Of a DNA stretch of 64,000 nucleotides, positions 42,767 through 54,777 are shown piece after piece. The notes beneath the pieces are model-generated. The model made no database searches, was not told where the DNA came from, and saw nothing but the letters and a program-made list of their open reading frames with translations. A program made the position numbers and the translations under genes. How positions within the stretch are numbered: the first letter of the stretch is position 1; every line of letters starts with the position of its first letter. The DNA is from Escherichia coli O127:H6 str. E2348/69 (GTDB lineage: Bacteria > Pseudomonadota > Gammaproteobacteria > Enterobacterales > Enterobacteriaceae). The stretch lies in the NCBI RefSeq assembly GCF_000026545.1, contig NC_011601.1; one strand, written 5' to 3'.

Positions 42767-43183
42767 TCATTCGCTCCCCTCTTTTTCCTTATTTCGTTGA
42801 ACGCCAATTGCGACACACGTACTAAGCAAATCTTTACATTTCTCTACATCTTCAGACTTACGCAATTTGATGCTTTTTACAGACTGCGGGCTACTGTCCG
42901 TAGCACGATACATCGTTATTTCAATATCATTTCGGTCTAAGAGTCCCATAATGGCTTTTGCAACCTCCACACCCTTCTTCGCGAAATCAAAGAACAGAGC
43001 AAGTTTATATGGATTTTCGACGGAAAAAACTTCAATTTTGCTAAAACCAACATCGTGTAGAGAAAAATATTGCTCAACCTCATCTCGAAGTTCTGGATCG
43101 CATACAATGTCTATTCTCCAGTACTGACCTAAATGCAAATCGCTATTAACTGTTTTTTCCACAACATCCTCCTTACCCAGCAA
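42767..43183 (-). CDS. Hypothetical protein (138 aa), AT-rich, immediately downstream of and overlapping the int stop
   Basis: Complete ORF with acidic/lysine-rich composition; no family recognised. Confidence 0.45.
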   Translation of the reverse strand: MLGKEDVVEKTVNSDLHLGQYWRIDIVCDPELRDEVEQYFSLHDVGFSKIEVFSVENPYKLALFFDFAKKGVEVAKAIMGLLDRNDIEITMYRATDSSPQSVKSIKLRKSEDVEKCKDLLSTCVAIGVQRNKEKEGSE

Positions 43184-44147
43184 TAGGATTAAATCTCACC
43201 GCATCCTGCAAGTAATCCGGCGCAAGATGGGCATAAATCATCGTTGTCTGAATCTTTGCGTGCCCCAGAATTTTCTGGAGCGTCAGAATATTGCCGCCGT
43301 TCATCATGAAATGACTGGCGAAGGTGTGGCGCAGCGCATGAACAGCCTGGCCGTCAGGAACATCAGGTGCGACCGTTTTGATGACATCGCGAACCAATGG
43401 ATAATCCAGCGTCGGAAACACCAGTTTCCCGCCCCGTTTTTTGATCTTTTCAAACAGGCTTTCAGAAATAGGAACGGTACGGTTTTTGCTGTTCTTCGTT
43501 TTTGAAAAAGTGATTCGACAATGAAGAACACGGCGCTGCTCCAGTGCCGCTACCTCGCCCCATCGCGCCCCGGTCGACAGAAGGATTTCGACAGCCAGCC
43601 GTTCATCGGGATTTTCAGCCAGTGCATCCAGCAACTGAACACATTCAGACTTACTCAGATATCCCATTTCGCGCTCGTTAACCTTCATTCCTTTAAGGCC
43701 TTGAACGGGGTTATCGTTAAGAAAATGGCCGGATGAGATGAGTGCGGTAAACATCGCGCTTAACGCCCCAATCTCTCGATTAATGGTGCTGGGCTGTATC
43801 CCCTGCTCTATCCTGGACACACGTAGCTCGGTGAGCATCGTTGTATTAAGTTTATGCACACACGGGTCATCCATTGCCTCACTCAAGCGCAGCAATTTAA
43901 GGCGCGTGTTATGCCCTGACTTCATTAGCTGGCCGTGGTATTTCCACCACAAGTCAATAAGCACCGACAGCGGACGGCGATCAATGGAGTTTCCTTTCCA
44001 CTCATTGTTATGCTGTTGCGCCAGCACCCACCGCTCATATAAAACTGCATCCGATTTCGTTTTAAATTTTTTGCGAATGCGTTTGCCTTTACGCCCCTCA
44101 GGGCGCATGTCAAGAAGATACCCTCCCGGAATTGATTTTATGCTCAT
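43173..44147 (-). CDS. int: Tyrosine integrase (P2 Int-like)
   Basis: Strong similarity to P2 integrase (…EGRKGKRIRKKF…, …LSTGARWGE…, …HALRHTFASHFMMNGGNILTLQKILGH…MIYAH…); start taken at internal Met (MSIKSIPGGY) of the 374-aa ORF. Confidence 0.9.
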   Translation of the reverse strand: MSIKSIPGGYLLDMRPEGRKGKRIRKKFKTKSDAVLYERWVLAQQHNNEWKGNSIDRRPLSVLIDLWWKYHGQLMKSGHNTRLKLLRLSEAMDDPCVHKLNTTMLTELRVSRIEQGIQPSTINREIGALSAMFTALISSGHFLNDNPVQGLKGMKVNEREMGYLSKSECVQLLDALAENPDERLAVEILLSTGARWGEVAALEQRRVLHCRITFSKTKNSKNRTVPISESLFEKIKKRGGKLVFPTLDYPLVRDVIKTVAPDVPDGQAVHALRHTFASHFMMNGGNILTLQKILGHAKIQTTMIYAHLAPDYLQDAVRFNPIAG

Positions 44148-46940: not shown

Positions 46941-49763
46941 ATGACGGCAGAGTACATCAGGGACTGGCAACAACCGCGCCACGCAGTGGGGCGTGAAGGA
47001 ACGGGGATCCCCGCTCCTGAATCCGCGCTTTCCTCCTGGCTGGATGCCTACCGGGCAGAGAACGAGCACCGCCAGGAAATGGCTGATGCGGCGTTCTCCG
47101 CCACGCCGCTGGGCAACCTGATTAATAAAAGCCTGGACGCACAGGAAAAACAGGACAAAACCATCACACTGGCAGGAGACGCCAGAAAACAGGCACGCGG
47201 CGCGGTGGATGAAGCCATGGCCTCGCTGCGCCTGCTGCCGTCCTATCTGCGCGATCCGCTTATTCGCCACCTCTCCTTCCTGCGCAAAAAACAGGAAGCC
47301 GATCGTCAGAAAGGAAAAAACGCCAGGCAGGCAGAACGCTATGCGCGTGGGACCCTGCGCAAAATATTCGAACGTCTGGAGCGCACCGATCACCGCTGGC
47401 TGACACCGGGTTATCGCTCCCTTGCCGGACGCGAACGCCTGGACGATTTGCTTTACCTGCCGCAGCTCAACAAACACCAGATAAAGACGCTGGCAACCAT
47501 GACGGCGGCGATGTTCAGCAGCACCTTCGAAAAACTCTGCGATGGCTTTGGCGCGACCGATGGCGAGCTGACCATGGATGTAACCCTGAAGGCGTATCAG
47601 ATGCTGGCCCGCATGGCGTTACACCTGCACGCCATGCCTCCACATTATGACGCACTGACAACAGACAAAGACCGGAGGAACGAACCGGACACGGAGCTGC
47701 TGCCGGGCGCAATCCTTCGCCTGACCTGTGCGGAATGGTGGAAACGCAAACTGTGGCTGTTACGTTGCGAGTGGAGAGAAGAACAACTCCGCGCCGCCTG
47801 TCTGGTTTCCAGAAAAACATCGCCCTATCTGAGCCAGGACGCGTTAAGCGAGTTTCGCGCACAGCGCGAGAAAACACGCGATTTCCTGAAAAGTTTCATG
47901 CTGGAAAACGAAGACGGGTTCACGATTGATCTCGAGACAGTGTATTACGCGGGAGTAAGTAACCCGGTTCACCGTAAGGCAGAAATGATGGCCACCATGA
48001 AGGGACTGGAACTTCTGGCCGAAGCCCGTGGCGACAGAGCGGTGTTTCTGACTGTCACCTGCCCGTCAAAATACCACGCAACAACGGAGAACGGTCATCC
48101 GAACCCCAAATGGAACGGGGCCACCATGCGCGACTCCAGCGATTACCTGGTTAACACGTTTTTTGCGGCGGTCCGCAAAAAACTGAACCGCGACGGCCTG
48201 CGCTGGTATGGCATCCGCACGGTGGAGCCTCACCATGACGGCACCGTGCACTGGCATATGATGGTCTTTGCTCATCCGGAAGAAATCGACAGCATCGTGA
48301 CCATCACCCGCGATATTGCCATTCAGGAAGACCGCCACGAGCTGGGCAATGATATTACTCCGCGCTTTAAGGTGGAGTACGTCGACGGCACCAAAGGCAC
48401 GCCAACCAGCTACATCGCCACCTACATCGGAAAAAACCTGGACAGCCGCGCCGTGGATGGCATCGACCCGAAAACGGGCAAACCACGCGTTGACCACGAA
48501 ACCGGAAAATCAATGGCCGAGAGCGTGGAGCGCGCCATCGGTTGGGCACGCCTTCACCGGGTCCGCCAGTTCCAGTTCTTTGGCATCCCCTCCCGTCAGG
48601 TGTGGCGTGAACTCCGCCGCCTTGCCAGCCAGATGGCACGCAACCCGGAAGGCCCGCAACGGCTGAAGGATGACGCAATGGATGCGGTACTCGCTGCCGC
48701 TGATGCCGGATGTTTTGCCACCTACATAGAGAAACAGGGCGGTGTACTTGTTCCACGCAAAGACTACCTGATTCGCACCGCCTACGACCTCGCCGATGAG
48801 CTGAACGATTACGGCGAACAGAGTGTACAGATTTACGGGATCTGGTCACCACTCATCGGGGAATCCTCCCGTGTGTGCACGCACCCGGATAACTGGAAGC
48901 TGGTAAGACGTAAACCGGAACAGGAAGGCAGCGCCCACGAAAATGGTTTTGACCTTCAGGGCGGCCCTGCCGCCCCTTGGACTCGTGGCAATAACTGTCC
49001 CCGTGTACAGGAAACGGACAACAACGGGACAGAACAGCCGGAAGAACGGCCAGCACCGTGGCCGCAGCTCCCTGACGGCGTTGAAGTGAACGAATGGGTG
49101 CGCTCACTGAAACGGCACGAACGCCGGGCGCTGATGCGTTCGCTTCGTGACAAACAGGCAAAAAACAGCAGTGATGAAATGCAGAGCTGGACACAGAGCC
49201 GCAAACAGCAGCGGCCTTTGCCTGATAACCACGAATTACTCGCTAAAGAATGGCGGGAGTCTGCTGAATCTCTCGGCCTGCATATCGGTGAACAGCAGAT
49301 GCAGCACCTGTTACGGGGCGGCAGCCTGTACGTTGACGGCAGCATCATTGCACCGCAGGGATATGAAATTGTACGTAAACCGGATACCCGCCCGGACAGC
49401 CGAATCACGCAGCTCTGGCAACGCCTGAGCCGTAACCACGGCGTAAGCAGCACGGAGATCCGCCATAACCCGGTCGCCAGCTATCTGGAACAACTAGGGG
49501 CATCAGACCCTGAAGCCGCCGCACGCCTGGCATCCACACTTCAGCAAGACCAGAACACCATGAAAACACCCGTTACCGTACTTTCTGACATGCTGCGCGC
49601 CATCCGCGACGCAGAGCACGAACAGAGAATCAGTGAAACAACTGAACGCGCCCGCCGCAAAGCAGACCTGCTGCGGGGTGGCCTGACCAGTGGAAACAAA
49701 AAACAGACAAAAACGGGATTCACAAATCCCGTAAATGAGCAAAAAACGCGCCGCGATATATGA
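46941..49763 (+). CDS. A: Rolling-circle replication initiator (P2 gpA-like HUH endonuclease), 940 aa
   Basis: HUH motif (GTVHWHMMVF) and Y-x3-Y active-site pair (YIATYIGKN) as in P2 A. Confidence 0.85.
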   Translation: MTAEYIRDWQQPRHAVGREGTGIPAPESALSSWLDAYRAENEHRQEMADAAFSATPLGNLINKSLDAQEKQDKTITLAGDARKQARGAVDEAMASLRLLPSYLRDPLIRHLSFLRKKQEADRQKGKNARQAERYARGTLRKIFERLERTDHRWLTPGYRSLAGRERLDDLLYLPQLNKHQIKTLATMTAAMFSSTFEKLCDGFGATDGELTMDVTLKAYQMLARMALHLHAMPPHYDALTTDKDRRNEPDTELLPGAILRLTCAEWWKRKLWLLRCEWREEQLRAACLVSRKTSPYLSQDALSEFRAQREKTRDFLKSFMLENEDGFTIDLETVYYAGVSNPVHRKAEMMATMKGLELLAEARGDRAVFLTVTCPSKYHATTENGHPNPKWNGATMRDSSDYLVNTFFAAVRKKLNRDGLRWYGIRTVEPHHDGTVHWHMMVFAHPEEIDSIVTITRDIAIQEDRHELGNDITPRFKVEYVDGTKGTPTSYIATYIGKNLDSRAVDGIDPKTGKPRVDHETGKSMAESVERAIGWARLHRVRQFQFFGIPSRQVWRELRRLASQMARNPEGPQRLKDDAMDAVLAAADAGCFATYIEKQGGVLVPRKDYLIRTAYDLADELNDYGEQSVQIYGIWSPLIGESSRVCTHPDNWKLVRRKPEQEGSAHENGFDLQGGPAAPWTRGNNCPRVQETDNNGTEQPEERPAPWPQLPDGVEVNEWVRSLKRHERRALMRSLRDKQAKNSSDEMQSWTQSRKQQRPLPDNHELLAKEWRESAESLGLHIGEQQMQHLLRGGSLYVDGSIIAPQGYEIVRKPDTRPDSRITQLWQRLSRNHGVSSTEIRHNPVASYLEQLGASDPEAAARLASTLQQDQNTMKTPVTVLSDMLRAIRDAEHEQRISETTERARRKADLLRGGLTSGNKKQTKTGFTNPVNEQKTRRDI

Positions 49764-49808
49764 AGCGCGCACAAAACAGGCGAAAACGGGATTTAAAAAT
49801 CCTGTAAC
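49710..49808. repeat. Two ~27-bp near-identical interrupted palindromes (aaaacgggattNANAAATCCNGTAA), candidate parC-like centromere or ori element
   Basis: Copy 1 at ~49710-49736 (inside the 3' end of A), copy 2 at ~49782-49808 (32 bp upstream of parM start). Confidence 0.45.
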
Positions 49809-49839: not shown

Positions 49840-50799
49840 ATGAAAATTTGTATCGACGACGGCTCCACCAACATCAAGCTGGCATGGACTGAGAACGGCG
49901 AACACCGCAACGCCATCAGCCCGAACAGCTTCAAGTCGGAATGGTCTGCGCCGTTCGGTGGCACGCAGCCCGCGAACTACATGCTTGATGGCGTGCGCTA
50001 TGGTTTTGATCCGGTCAGCGATCGCTTTGTCCAGACGACCGACACGCAATACCAGTACAGCGATGTGAATGTCATTGCCATTCATCATGCGCTGGTCAAA
50101 TCAGGCATCACGCCACAGGAGGTGGATGTGGTTGTCACCCTGCCACTGAGCGAGTATTTCGACACAAACGCACAGCCGGACATGGCCAACATCAACCGCA
50201 AAAAAGCGAACGTTATGCGCCCGGTGGAGTACCAAAACGGCGAGGCATTCACTATCCGTAACGTGCGGGTTATGCCTGAATCCATTCCGGCTGGCTTTAA
50301 AGCACTGGCTGACATGAGTCCGTTTGAATCCCTGCTGATTGTGGATTTGGGCGGAACCACGCTGGATGTGGCAAAGGTTCAGGGGCAACTGGCAGGTATC
50401 AGCCAGGTGTTTTGCGATCCACACGTAGGCGTTTCTCTGATGGCCGATGCCGTGCTGTCGGTGATGGCCACCAACGGTATGCGCACCAGTCACCACATCG
50501 CCAATACCATTATCGAACATCGCCACGATGAAGCCTGGCTGCGCCAGCACATCCACAATGACGCGCATTACGCCAGCCTGATGGCAGTTATTCGTGAAAA
50601 GGAGGAAACACTGAAACAACGCGTGATCCGCGCGCTGGCGGTTTTTTCGGGTTACGGGCGGGTGATGGTTGTCGGTGGAGGGGCGGAGATTGTGGCACCC
50701 GCTATCCGCGAAGCCTGCGGAGTTAATGCGACTTTCATCGCGGACGGGGTGCCACAGTTTGCTCTGGTTAATGGGCTGTACGCAATGGACAAGGAGTAA
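49840..50799 (+). CDS. parM: ParM/StbA-like actin-type partition ATPase
   Basis: IDDGSTNIKL...ISPNSFK...YSDVNVIAIHHAL...RKKANV...VMPESIPAG...DLGGTTLD...VVGGGAE closely parallels plasmid R1 ParM. Confidence 0.85.
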   Translation: MKICIDDGSTNIKLAWTENGEHRNAISPNSFKSEWSAPFGGTQPANYMLDGVRYGFDPVSDRFVQTTDTQYQYSDVNVIAIHHALVKSGITPQEVDVVVTLPLSEYFDTNAQPDMANINRKKANVMRPVEYQNGEAFTIRNVRVMPESIPAGFKALADMSPFESLLIVDLGGTTLDVAKVQGQLAGISQVFCDPHVGVSLMADAVLSVMATNGMRTSHHIANTIIEHRHDEAWLRQHIHNDAHYASLMAVIREKEETLKQRVIRALAVFSGYGRVMVVGGGAEIVAPAIREACGVNATFIADGVPQFALVNGLYAMDKE

Positions 50800-50803
50800 A
50801 CCA

Positions 50804-51115
50804 ATGACGACTCCAACCAGACGGATAAGTTTCTATCTGAAGCCCACCGCCGTCAAGAACGAAGGAGAAGCATGCGCCTGGCTGGACAGCCTTACACCAG
50901 AAGCCCGCAAAAGCGGCCAACGCGTGGCTTTTCTGGCCGGGCTGGCACTTCTGAAAATGAATCCGGCAGAGGCTTACCGACTGGCTGCATGGGCTGATGA
51001 TGAGGTGTTATCAGTGACACAAACCAAGACAGAACGCCCCGCGTCACAGCCAGTATCAACCGCACAGATAACCAGTCAGATGGCCGGAAATATCCGGGCG
51101 TTATTTCCTGAATAA
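50804..51115 (+). CDS. parR: ParR-like centromere-binding adaptor
   Basis: RRISFYLKP...WLDSLTPEARKSGQRVAFLAGLAL...RALFPE parallels R1 ParR (RTIAFKLNP...TLDSIP..RS..RAALTAGLAL...SLFPKE); internal-Met start. Confidence 0.7.
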   Translation: MTTPTRRISFYLKPTAVKNEGEACAWLDSLTPEARKSGQRVAFLAGLALLKMNPAEAYRLAAWADDEVLSVTQTKTERPASQPVSTAQITSQMAGNIRALFPE

Positions 51116-51493
51116 CATCAGGGCGTATTCGCCCTGCCACCAATCCCATAACATAAAGAACGGGGTGCAAATCACTATACACCCCGTTCCAATACAAACC
51201 ATCAGAAGATCTACACATCTTTCTCAAATGGCCAAGTAATCGAGCTGGTTCAGGAATAAGCATGCTGCCAACACAAGTGAAGGAGATAAAACTGTAGAAC
51301 TGATCAATCGTTGGAAACAAGTATTGACAGTATGTTCGAGTAACCCAACTGGATAGATTTTATGCTGATTATCCATACAGTAAAAAAGTAAGGATACTCT
51401 TTGAATTACGCCAGCAAGAGTGGTAACATTAGTCAATGATTTTCATTAATGTAGTTACCAGCTTACACAAGCTGATGTTTTATTGGGGGTTTT

Positions 51494-52576
51494 ATGGTAA
51501 ACGTGAGGGAGGATGAACTTTTCAAACTCATCGAGCAAGGCATCAAAGGCAACGCAAATGCATTTACACTCCTATGCAGAAAGATGATTAACAACATCCG
51601 TAAAAATGATGAGGCTTTAGCTTCTAAGCTGGCTTCGTTAGTTGCTGAGGGAACAGTATTACGTGGGGCATCTAGTAAGGCTCCTATGCCTGTGGATGGA
51701 GACTCCAGACGAAACCTTTTGCAGGAAACATCTGTCAACGCAATTGTTGAAGAACCTGTATGGAATACGGATATCTCAAAGAAGCTGGAGTCAATTGTTA
51801 ACGAAAGAGAGAATGCGGTTTCTTTGTTCAAAGCTGGTCTTGAACCTGTGAAGACGGTTTTACTTTCTGGCCCGCCAGGCGTAGGCAAAACAATGTCCGC
51901 ACATTGGCTTGCTGCAAAGTTAAATTTACCTCTTTTAACATTGGATCTCTCATCTGTAATGAGTTCTCTTTTGGGAAAAACAGGTAATAATATTAAATCC
52001 GTTATGGATTATGCCAAAGAGAAACCATGTGTCCTTTTGCTTGATGAATTTGATGCTGTTGCAAAAAGACGTGATGATGACAGGGACGTTGGAGAATTAA
52101 AACGTTTAGTTACTGTACTCCTACAGACCATAGATGAGTGGCCAGCGACCTCGCTTCTTGTTGCTGCGACTAATCACCCTGATATCTTAGATCCGGCTGT
52201 TTGGCGTCGATTTGAGCACATCCTTAAATTTAATATGCCATCAGTAGAACTGATAGATAGATATTTAGTCAATCATAATATTGAACCTGAACTATCTAAA
52301 AAACTTGCACCATTATTAGATGGCATGTCCTTTGCCATCATTAACCGTATTTTGAATTTCTCCAAAAAGAATGAGGTACTTAGAAATATTCCATTTGAAA
52401 GCTCATTAATAGAAGCCGTAATTACGGAGAGGGTTTCATTGGATGAGTTTAGCGATAATGATCTCAATATAATTAAATATCATTTTGACGGTTTTTCAAA
52501 TAGGAAGATAGCTGAATTAGTTGGTGTTTCACATCCAACAATCGCGAATAAATTACAAAAGTGGGGGATTAAATGA
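51494..52576 (+). CDS. Classic-clade AAA+ ATPase with C-terminal LuxR/GerE-like HTH (360 aa); candidate defence component
   Basis: Walker A GPPGVGKT (aa 126-133), Walker B LLLDEFD (aa 181-187), sensor-1 ATN, second-region-of-homology-like DILDPAVWRRFEH; C-terminal NRKIAELVGVSHPTIANKLQKWGI HTH. Confidence 0.85.
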   Translation: MVNVREDELFKLIEQGIKGNANAFTLLCRKMINNIRKNDEALASKLASLVAEGTVLRGASSKAPMPVDGDSRRNLLQETSVNAIVEEPVWNTDISKKLESIVNERENAVSLFKAGLEPVKTVLLSGPPGVGKTMSAHWLAAKLNLPLLTLDLSSVMSSLLGKTGNNIKSVMDYAKEKPCVLLLDEFDAVAKRRDDDRDVGELKRLVTVLLQTIDEWPATSLLVAATNHPDILDPAVWRRFEHILKFNMPSVELIDRYLVNHNIEPELSKKLAPLLDGMSFAIINRILNFSKKNEVLRNIPFESSLIEAVITERVSLDEFSDNDLNIIKYHFDGFSNRKIAELVGVSHPTIANKLQKWGIK

Positions 52577-54777
52577 TGGAAAGGAACTTACTTTTAGGTA
52601 ACGGTCATGTTCTGACAAAAAAGGAACCTTTGCCTAAAGGAAGGGATGGTAAGCGCTATCCCTATACTCTTGAAGAAGTAAGGGAGCATTTAAACCCAGA
52701 GATTGATACTTTACTCTCACGCTTTCGCAGTTTGGATGATGCGGCTAAGCCAAGGGGGGAGAGTGTATTCAATTTAACTTTACACCCAGCGTTTTTGGGT
52801 AAAAGCTACTTTCCGGAAGGATTGCTTAGAGCGACAGGTTTACGGGATGTCGGCAGCCGTCAGGTAATCATTCGCCCACGGAAAGCGGCACGTCAGTGCG
52901 ATCAGAATAAGGACTTAGTAACGGCGCAACTGTTTGTTAGCGGTGATGATGATGCCGTTATAAGATTTAAGGAAATTTTAAATTCCCCTACAGCTCCGAA
53001 GGGCGTACAAAAGGATTTGATCGAAATTGAAAGTGTTAGCTTTTTTGAAGGAAAAGAGAGAGCACGCAATTTTGAGCATGCGAAAAGTGATTTGATAAAA
53101 TTTGAAGTGGTTCTTCATGCTGGGGTTGAAGACGATGATATCGTTAAAGCCTATATTAGCTATGCGGCACAATATGATGTCTCTGTTGATTACAAAAGTA
53201 GAATCCAAGTTGGTGGGCTGACTTTCATCGTTGCACACGCGCGACCTGAAGATATGAAAAAAACACTCGATTTTTCATTAATCCGCGTTGTGCGGCCGAT
53301 GCCGTCTCTCAGGTGTACTCAGCCGAACATTGTCAGAAAGTTATCTAATATAGTTACACCGGAGCTCCCTAATTCTAAAGCTGTTCTTGAATCCGAACGT
53401 ATTGCCATTTTTGATGGTGGCTTGGGGACAGCTGACTTGAGTAATTGGGTTACGGAATACGTGTATCCAGACACCAAAGAAACAAGCGGATTATTATTGC
53501 AGCACGGTAATGAAGTGACATCCACTTTCTTATTCGGACGTGTCGAGGAAAATGCACCTTCTTTTAAAAGACCGTTTATGAATGTAGATCATTATAGAGT
53601 TCTTTCACCGACATCAGGTGACAATGGCAATTGGGATTTATTTGATGTCCTTAAGAAAATACAGTCCGTTCTTGATAGTGGTGACTATAAGTTCGCTAAT
53701 CTAAGTATTGGTCCTCATCTTCCAATTGGTGATGATGAGGTTCATGTATGGACTGCTGTTTTAGACCAAATCTGTGCTAAGCATGGGATATTACTTACTG
53801 TTGCTGTTGGGAATGATGGCAATGAGGACGGTGATGCAGCGAGAATACAACCTCCTTCCGATATGGTAAACGCGCTAGCGATTGGTGCTGCTGATCGTAG
53901 CGGTGAAAAATGGGGGCGGGCACCATATAGCTGTATTGGGCCAGGCAGAAGCCCCGGATTCGTTAAACCTGATGGTGTTATTTTTGGTGGAAGCGACGAC
54001 GAGCCTTTTTACACTTACAACCCTCTGCTTGGTTCTATAGTTGGAGTTCAAGGAACCAGTTATGCCTCTCCATTAGCATTGAGAACGGCCGCTGGAGTTG
54101 CGGCTCTATCAGGAACTCCATTGAACACCATTGCATTGAAAGCGTTGCTTGTTCATCATGCTGAAACATCAAGAAAATATTCGCGTGAACATATCGGTTG
54201 GGGACGGTTTAGTGAGGATCCTAACGTTTTAATCGATTGTCCAAATGATACTGCTACAGTAATTTACTATGGTTCATTAGCAAAAAATAAATATTTAAGG
54301 GCACCGATCCCATTCCCTGATGTTCCCTTTGACGAAGCATTTGAGCTTACCGCTACTTTATGCATTCAAACCCCAGTAGATCCTGAACATTCAGTAAACT
54401 ATACAAGGGCCGGTATGCAGGTAACTTTCCGCCCAAGATTCGGCCTTGACGATACCGATACAGATGATTTCTTTGGTCAAAAAAGCCAGTATAAGACTGA
54501 AAGGGAGTGTAGGAGTGAAGGTCATAAGTGGGAAACTTGTTTGCACAGAAGCAAAAAGTTCAGTGCTGATACATTATTAAGCGATCCAGTTTTTGATATA
54601 CGGTATCATGCCCGAGATTCTTCGCGCCATGTTAAGGGAGTTTCAGCCCCTGATATGCAATATGCGATGGTAATAAGCGTAAGGGTAAAAGACTTTGATT
54701 TATATAATGTTATTCGCCAGCGATATACAATTCTGAATCCTATTCAACTGCGCACACAAATTTCTCTCGACACGTAA
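52573..54777 (+). CDS. Subtilisin-like (S8) serine peptidase, 734 aa, no signal peptide; candidate defence effector
   Basis: Catalytic order D-H-N-S: IAIFDGG (D281), HGNEVTS (H311), VAVGNDG (N414), GTSYASPLA (S496); ~270-aa N-terminal and ~230-aa C-terminal regions unassigned; start overlaps ATPase stop (ATGA). Confidence 0.85.
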   Translation: MMERNLLLGNGHVLTKKEPLPKGRDGKRYPYTLEEVREHLNPEIDTLLSRFRSLDDAAKPRGESVFNLTLHPAFLGKSYFPEGLLRATGLRDVGSRQVIIRPRKAARQCDQNKDLVTAQLFVSGDDDAVIRFKEILNSPTAPKGVQKDLIEIESVSFFEGKERARNFEHAKSDLIKFEVVLHAGVEDDDIVKAYISYAAQYDVSVDYKSRIQVGGLTFIVAHARPEDMKKTLDFSLIRVVRPMPSLRCTQPNIVRKLSNIVTPELPNSKAVLESERIAIFDGGLGTADLSNWVTEYVYPDTKETSGLLLQHGNEVTSTFLFGRVEENAPSFKRPFMNVDHYRVLSPTSGDNGNWDLFDVLKKIQSVLDSGDYKFANLSIGPHLPIGDDEVHVWTAVLDQICAKHGILLTVAVGNDGNEDGDAARIQPPSDMVNALAIGAADRSGEKWGRAPYSCIGPGRSPGFVKPDGVIFGGSDDEPFYTYNPLLGSIVGVQGTSYASPLALRTAAGVAALSGTPLNTIALKALLVHHAETSRKYSREHIGWGRFSEDPNVLIDCPNDTATVIYYGSLAKNKYLRAPIPFPDVPFDEAFELTATLCIQTPVDPEHSVNYTRAGMQVTFRPRFGLDDTDTDDFFGQKSQYKTERECRSEGHKWETCLHRSKKFSADTLLSDPVFDIRYHARDSSRHVKGVSAPDMQYAMVISVRVKDFDLYNVIRQRYTILNPIQLRTQISLDT

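Follow-up and report, generated by a model that had tools for sequence, protein, structure and literature searches.

Type II segregation systems of the ParMRC (StbA/StbB) kind are described from plasmids such as R1/R100, members of the IncF, IncI and IncK groups, and pB171, and in R1 and pB171 the C-terminal tail of the adaptor ParR is the part that touches the actin-like ATPase ParM. Systems of a similar kind are also known from elements which normally reside in a chromosome. The srpMRC locus of the SXT/R391 integrative and conjugative elements (ICEs) is expressed only on induction and modestly stabilises the excised circle, which replicates in rolling-circle mode (PMC4489591). In the integrated CGP3 prophage of Corynebacterium glutamicum, the AlpAC pair is induced early, and the excised phage depends on it to replicate efficiently (PMC4446434), with AlpA serving as DNA-binding adaptor at sites upstream of its own operon and AlpC forming actin-like filaments (PMC4446434, PMC5539076). 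Among P2-like phages, Burkholderia phage KS14 is a plasmid prophage with a plasmid Rep and ParA (PMC3091744). Furthermore, according to Rousset et al. (2022, PMC9122126), the parM/parR pair considered here is present in about a fourth of P2-like phages; these authors list its gene arrangement in their supplement, speculated on plasmid maintenance as its role and described the interval between the phage genes A and Q as a P2 diversity hotspot rich in defence systems. In this study, we analysed parM and parR of one P2-like prophage in a stretch of 64,000 nt (hereafter the window), which is identical (100%) to the chromosome of Escherichia coli O127:H6 str. E2348/69 (NC_011601.1).

We favour, at a probability of about one half, the reading that this pair is a functional type II (ParMRC-type) segregation module which belongs to the backbone of its phage lineage and acts on the free circular phage genome, and does not serve a stable plasmid prophage. 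The preliminary description of the window had proposed two open reading frames (ORFs) parallel to ParM and ParR of plasmid R1, located inside an integrated P2-like prophage. The ORF listing returned exactly these two frames (Table 1), and the relationship to the plasmid pair could be confirmed for both products. The 319-aa protein belongs to the ParM family according to Pfam, matching both StbA_N (PF06406, 3.7e-82) and the ParM C-terminal domain (PF21523, 9.8e-69), and it aligned from residue 2 to 316 with the R1 ParM structures 1MWK, 5AEY and 4A62 at 46.7% identity (best E 8.6e-93). All nucleotide-binding motifs are intact, namely DDGSTN at residues 6–11 (phosphate-1), E147, DLGGTT at 169–174 (the DxGGTT motif, phosphate-2) and GGGA at 279–282 (adenosine). 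They are invariant in an alignment with plasmid ParMs, E147 being equivalent to the catalytic Glu E148 of R1. The locus resembles the plasmid systems in gene order, gene sizes, full-length ParM homology (46.7% identity with R1 ParM and no more than 52% with that of any plasmid) and nucleotide-binding motifs.

ParR falls into one Pfam family with its counterparts in R1-type plasmids and pB171 (Plasmid_stab_B, PF10784, the StbB/ParR family; 8.5e-24) and into PHROG 2515 ('partition protein'). As a lone query the 103-aa sequence matched no solved structure, while a profile of ParRs from phages, plasmids and ICEs matched ParR of pB171 (2JD3) with an E-value of 6.7e-16. An N-terminal R-x3-F-Y-L strand and a C-terminal N-x4-F motif are both held in common with plasmid ParRs, and R6, F10, P14, R35, R40, G46 and A48 as well as the C-terminal N96 and F101 do not vary among 11 ParRs from phages, plasmids and ICEs. 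By analogy with the plasmid systems, we infer that these residues mediate binding to DNA and to ParM. The ATG of parR lies 4 nt past the parM stop, nested inside a longer TTG-started ORF and preceded by GGAG. It should be noted that identity of the module and its presence in P2-like phages are already known and annotated, both proteins being labelled as partition proteins by PHROGs and by the Prokaryotic Genome Annotation Pipeline (PGAP). What we add is evidence for a lineage backbone with a phage-specific ParM clade, a candidate palindromic parC, a boundary between ParR alleles, and negative evidence on both plasmid lifestyle and partition incompatibility.

In contrast to R1-type systems, the module is part of an integrated phage with an integrase and follows a rolling-circle replication gene, its ParM belongs to a separate clade, and its ParR is short and highly allelic. 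Within the A-to-Q interval, parMR lies directly 3' of gene A on the same strand. Megablast recovered modules of 94–97% nucleotide identity beside the replication gene in phages P88 (Xuanwuvirus), P884B11, 520873, 503458, Chuche, PhiR44_2 and Citrobacter phage Shae_phiSM (PhiSM), most of these records already annotating ParM or a partition protein; only the ParR allele and the cargo that follows distinguish the P88/Xuanwuvirus module from the one studied here. Distant relatives were reached via the protein database and contig look-ups, a single-protein scan of genome contigs having yielded three close loci. The protein search gave a tight cluster at 92–99% identity, followed by relatives at 54–62%, and every one of the latter that was looked up proved to be a parM–parR pair between Phage_GPA and portal of a P2-like prophage. 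At 50% ParM identity or less, the checked relatives were located in an integrated plasmid and in an ICE. The order A, parM, parR, variable cargo, portal is common to P88, a sopE-carrying prophage and prophages of Hafnia, Plesiomonas, Serratia and Enterobacter. The question raised in the preliminary description, whether related prophages carry the pair at the same site, can be answered in the affirmative for P88-like phages and for distant prophages of four other genera.

Conservation of ParM exceeds that of the other phage proteins compared. Between distant phages, leaving out the close Serratia/Enterobacter pair, ParM retains 52–62% identity compared with 29–55% for the gene A product (gpA), 30–49% for portal and 35–53% for the large terminase. 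In a neighbour-joining tree of 108 ParMs, calculated without bootstrap, all sequences from phages group in a single clade, separate from the ParMs of plasmids and ICEs. The ratio of nonsynonymous to synonymous substitution rates (dN/dS) of parM is 0.02–0.16 among P88-like loci, and the gene is under strong purifying selection. What follows parR varies by locus, being IetAS here and HicAB, a KAP NTPase, DUF3800 or small ORFs elsewhere. Taken together, synteny, the phage clade, low parM dN/dS and cargo that varies after parR exclude recent capture and hitch-hiking, and the earlier suggestion of hitch-hiking cargo is not supported in view of the constant site, the phage-specific clade and purifying selection. 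These comparisons argue that the module is a long-retained, selected part of the backbone of the P88/Xuanwuvirus lineage and of its relatives in other Enterobacterales and Plesiomonas. In annotation, it should be read as P88-type backbone and not as a sign of a plasmid or of hotspot cargo.

This differs from the view of Rousset et al. (2022), where the pair figures as a hotspot 'system', whereas here it is conserved backbone with the variable region starting after or within parR. An accessory role other than partition, be it interference with other phages or plasmids (for instance by partition incompatibility against competitors) or mere hitch-hiking, could be suspected from the site between A and Q in a defence-rich hotspot (PMC9122126), from the adjoining IetAS and from the unusual variability of ParR among otherwise near-identical phages. 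However, neither ParM nor ParR matched any PADLOC defence model, for which reason a defence function was rejected, and although the module lies inside the hotspot interval, its presence, order and position are constant while the downstream cargo changes. Deep conservation across genera, the phage-specific clade and purifying selection also speak against this explanation, which we consider very unlikely.

Least probable of all, in our estimate, is that the module represents an inactive relic of a past plasmid–phage fusion. The lack of a classical iteron array, the shortness of this ParR allele compared with plasmid ParRs and the minority of copies that are truncated or fused would fit such a history. 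The parM dN/dS and the full set of intact catalytic motifs do not, and neither does the retention of the invariant ParR residues and of a translationally coupled arrangement, nor the persistence of the module across lineages whose core genes have diverged to 30–50% identity. Separately from this question, we observed that degraded P88-like prophages are common. In O157 180-PT54, an IS3 remnant and tail-fibre fragments replace the region after parR, parM and parR being intact, and elsewhere the 5' part of parM is truncated at residue 188 or 224, or joined to unrelated genes that follow. In the database, such truncated forms fall into large clusters with 555 and 649 members.

Whereas ParM is nearly invariant among P88-like prophages (99% conserved), ParR occurs there in at least three alleles of about 53% mutual identity, and its variants form a continuum in the protein database. 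In matched genome pairs, synonymous divergence (dS) amounts to 0.7–1.4 for parR compared with 0.04–0.1 for parM, and dN/dS of parR is 0.06–0.43 within an allele and 0.29–0.52 between alleles. Nucleotide similarity breaks sharply at about position 50858, 18 codons into parR; 5' of the break, the 3' end of gene A and parM are 97–99% identical among P88-like prophages. The first 17 and last 8 residues of ParR are conserved across alleles. The break looks like a recombination boundary between conserved backbone and variable region, combined with a poorly constrained ParR linker. Among complete E. coli genomes, the alleles occur in about 665 (the type of the window), 661 and 45 genomes, respectively, and the window-type allele was found in 748 places in its 665 genomes, with up to three per genome. 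Prophages with the same allele thus co-reside in one genome, and diversification of ParR as a means to avoid partition incompatibility between co-resident prophages was rejected on this ground. The same co-residence counts against incompatibility-driven diversification as part of an interference role.

In the RefSeq annotation, the prophage is chromosomal and lies next to btuC. From there the gene order is btuC, a small hypothetical gene, phage integrase, a C-type repressor and a plus-strand early operon that ends with gene A, followed by ParM, a 'plasmid partitioning/stability family protein', an AAA ATPase and an S8 peptidase. Beyond the S8 peptidase, portal and terminase are encoded on the minus strand, and then P2-type capsid, lysis and tail genes. 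With integrase, C-type repressor and P2-type structural genes in place, the location of the module inside an integrated, integrase-bearing P2-like prophage stands as first described. The sole annotated replication protein is the gene A endonuclease, whose length of 940 aa is the same in all P88-like phages, as opposed to 785–907 aa in the distant ParMR-bearing relatives examined.

Across 5426 complete E. coli genomes the module was found in 1307 (24%), including enteropathogenic E. coli (EPEC) E2348/69, O157:H7 and sequence type 131 (ST131) strains, and 1453 of its 1455 copies are chromosomal, the other two being assigned to plasmids. The preliminary description had called active partition characteristic of plasmids and plasmid prophages and not of a P2-type phage with an integrase. 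With nearly a quarter of genomes carrying it, almost always in the chromosome and at the same site across genera, and with the association already published, this sense of anomaly does not hold; srpMRC and AlpAC provide precedents for type II-like systems in integrating elements.

The distribution bears directly on whether the pair supports a stable plasmid (phage-plasmid) lifestyle as an alternative to integration, in line with the speculation of Rousset et al. (2022). Completeness of the partition pair would suit such a lifestyle, P2-like plasmid prophages do exist (KS14, PMC3091744; paPv10 of Arsenophonus), and NZ_CP148288.1 presents a whole P88-like genome as a circular plasmid record. Besides the overwhelmingly chromosomal location, however, the remaining 'plasmid' records are captured chromosomal segments or mis-assignments. 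In PLSDB, true plasmid ParMs are at best 52% identical; near-identical records go back to an IncHI2 plasmid with a captured chromosomal segment bearing the sopE-carrying prophage, and the others at 99% or above are very large doubtful or mis-assigned replicons, one linear fragment and one phage-sized circle. These same records led us to reject recent capture from a plasmid. As phage-sized circular P2-like records occur without ParMR as well, for example the integrase-bearing pENTAS02 of Enterobacter soli, the single circle NZ_CP148288.1 is not specific evidence for a ParMR-supported plasmid state.

Plasmid prophages are extrachromosomal in lysogens and have a plasmid-type initiator and usually no integrase. 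KS14 and paPv10 share P2-type structural genes and partition functions with the prophage studied here, but theirs is a type I, ParA-type ATPase next to a plasmid Rep on an extrachromosomal genome that has no tyrosine integrase, whereas here integrase, gene A and ParM/ParR are found together in the chromosome and no plasmid-type initiator is annotated. In P2, moreover, lysogens keep the early operon with gene A repressed, and this operon drives the activation of late genes. Given chromosomal copies, integrase and the lack of a plasmid-type initiator, we find a stable plasmid lifestyle not supported and leave it a slim chance.

Two of these circular records merit separate description. NZ_CP148288.1 is a 34,461-bp circular 'plasmid' from a cat E. 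coli isolate and comprises a complete P88-like genome (int, C, cox, A, parM, parR and structural genes), and its 4-kb parMR stretch matches, at 100% identity, an integrated copy carried by a human isolate of the same project. In the circular 33.8-kb paPv10 of Arsenophonus nasoniae (NZ_CP123514.1), a full set of P2-type structural genes is accompanied by Cox and gene A. The usual position of int is occupied by a plasmid 'replication initiator protein A' together with an AAA (ParA-like) ATPase, and an integrase is lacking; the element appears to be a P2-type phage-plasmid, and several similar Arsenophonus records of 33–36 kb exist.

Next to the two genes, the third component expected of a ParMRC-type module is the centromere. 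Upstream of parM we found two 38-nt repeats (Table 1), each holding a 20-bp palindrome ACGGGATT-N4-AATCCCGT, and the 24-nt palindrome pattern occurs at only these two sites in the 64 kb of the window, where none would be expected. The palindrome arms are kept in 10 P88-like loci, with variation falling mostly in the 4-nt centre. A related CAAAAACGGGA motif together with inverted repeats was observed upstream of parM in Serratia and Enterobacter prophages, and CGGGTTCATTAAATCCCAG in a Hafnia prophage. The two palindromic repeats are the best candidate for parC, to which ParR is predicted to bind. Codons of the C-terminal tail of gpA overlap the first repeat, which places this repeat under coding constraint in addition to a possible binding-site constraint.

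The arrangement differs considerably from parC of R1, in which about ten 11-bp iterons flank a promoter. Neither the repeat finder nor a k-mer/shuffle test found an R1-type iteron array upstream of parM: four weak A-tract repeats lie within the range of shuffled sequence, compared with seven iterons at 11-bp spacing in the plasmid control. A classical iteron parC was rejected on this basis. A consensus scan of the 76-bp spacer between A and parM, in which promoter and terminator calls are consensus matches only, gave no promoter-like site and no terminator-like site on the plus strand, and a sigma-70 promoter of its own for parM was rejected with it. The sequence ATTAATCAA, conserved in three lineages some 20 nt before the parM ATG, is only a weak -10 candidate. 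Since no promoter- or terminator-like site separates A from parM, parMR is probably co-transcribed with gene A as read-through of the early operon.

We propose a model in which ParR dimers would bind the two palindrome-containing repeats upstream of parM, while the C-terminal N-x4-F motif of ParR would capture the ends of ParM filaments, so that ParR on its sites caps and stabilises them. ATP-driven polymerisation of ParM would then push paired circular phage genomes apart. With its place after gene A, as the last part of the early/replication operon, parMR is expected to be silent in the repressed, integrated prophage and active only on the free circle. This circle would be present after infection and before integration, and again after excision during rolling-circle replication driven by gene A. 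The likely benefit would be that copies are distributed, and not lost or clumped, in a transient plasmid-like phase, as is known for srpMRC of the SXT/R391 ICEs. The suggestion in the preliminary description that the module may stabilise an episomal form is retained as plausible for a transient episome.

Both precedents in integrating elements support this comparison, each with limits. Like srpMRC, the module is a type II-like partition locus on a normally integrated element. However, SrpM is distant from ParM and SrpR has no recognisable domain, whereas both proteins here are close homologues of ParM and ParR, and induction of the element, a phage, normally leads to lysis. With AlpAC the locus has in common an integrated prophage with a pair of actin-like protein and adaptor, while AlpC belongs to a distant actin-like family, the host is Gram-positive, the adaptor gene comes first and no sequence similarity was detected.

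The second precedent leads to an alternative in which ParM and ParR position or separate replicating circles for efficient replication by gene A and packaging from monomeric circles, inheritance by daughter cells not being the point. Linkage of the module to gene A in every lineage examined and its probable co-transcription are consistent with this explanation, as are the CGP3 AlpAC example (PMC4446434) and the better conservation of ParM relative to gpA and portal between distant phages, which is expected of a direct component of the phage cycle. On the other hand, about three quarters of the P2-like phages of E. coli lack the module and still replicate and package (PMC9122126), and the mechanism overlaps with that of the segregation module acting on the free circle, from which it differs mainly in the selected benefit. 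We regard the replication-centred explanation as unlikely, while granting it real weight. Between the two benefits, carrying a transient episome through division is ranked slightly higher than positioning or separating replicating circles, given the close homology of both proteins to a true segregation system.

Several observations weigh against a functional segregation module on the free circle. Without the roughly ten 11-bp iterons of R1-type parC, the centromere remains putative, and the consensus scan leaves room for an own promoter active in lysogens. Since the lytic cycle kills the cell, a partition benefit in the course of this cycle is unclear. Most P2-like phages manage without the module, and truncation or fusion affects about 16% of the sequences which the database contains for this ParM clade, so that loss of the module is tolerated in some, often degraded, prophages. 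In addition, full-text literature searches aimed at the module found no functional study and no experiment on it, and searches on Fels-2 and Xuanwuvirus yielded nothing of relevance.

If the module does act on a transient free circle, the findings on srpMRC of ICEs and AlpAC of CGP3 would extend to a major enterobacterial phage family, with a bearing on how prophages escape loss during establishment and excision. In a more far-reaching version, which we advance tentatively and with more doubt than confidence, about a quarter of E. coli P2-like phages would possess a phage-specific ParMRC that is integral to their life cycle and no plasmid relic. Its filaments would separate monomeric circles derived from rolling-circle replication or carry an un-integrated genome through division, measurably raising lysogenisation or yield, and the sharp recombination boundary in parR, which combines ancient ParR alleles with a near-identical ParM, would reflect functional diversification of the adaptor.

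Table 1. Positions of the partition genes, the candidate centromere and further prophage features in the window.
Feature	Position	Strand or location	Basis and remarks
parM, 319-aa actin-like segregation ATPase	49840..50799	+	ORF, ATG start, AAGGA 9 nt upstream
parR, 103-aa ribbon-helix-helix adaptor, short StbB/ParR allele	50804..51115	+	PF10784, PHROG 2515
Candidate parC unit 1, 38-nt repeat with palindrome ACGGGATT-N4-AATCCCGT	49697..49734	final codons of gene A	direct repeat D1, inverted repeat I19
Candidate parC unit 2, second 38-nt copy	49770..49807	76-bp A–parM spacer	84% identical to unit 1, 73 bp apart
Phage integrase	43173-44147	minus	RefSeq
Gene A, 940-aa replication endonuclease	46941..49763	+	PHROG 91 'nicking at origin of replication' 5.9e-277; RefSeq 'replication endonuclease'
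IetA-like AAA ATPase (360 aa) and IetS-like S8 peptidase (734 aa)	51494-54777		PADLOC 3.6e-89 and 6.6e-41
Short G+C-rich hairpin, just 3' of the parR stop	51119..51136	n/a	terminator-like scan

At the outermost edge of the prophage, between btuC and integrase, a 131-aa hypothetical gene is located on the minus strand (42767-43162), which may be cargo at the attachment-site end. No RNA element of Rfam was found between 42 and 56 kb at gathering thresholds. On the other side of the module, megablast matches to relatives stop at about 51115–51160 of the window, and the short hairpin behind parR (Table 1) roughly marks the limit of P88-like similarity and the start of variable cargo. The ATPase/peptidase pair after parR is an IetAS-type anti-phage system and hotspot cargo; both PADLOC scores lie under the NCBIfam equivalog cut-offs, and the G+C content of ietAS is 0.40–0.43 compared with about 0.55 for parMR and the phage backbone. 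In the 380-bp low-G+C spacer between parR and ietA, a strong hairpin with a 13-bp stem, GGAACGGGGTG...CACCCCGTTCT, extends from 51157 to 51190 and is terminator-like on the minus strand only.

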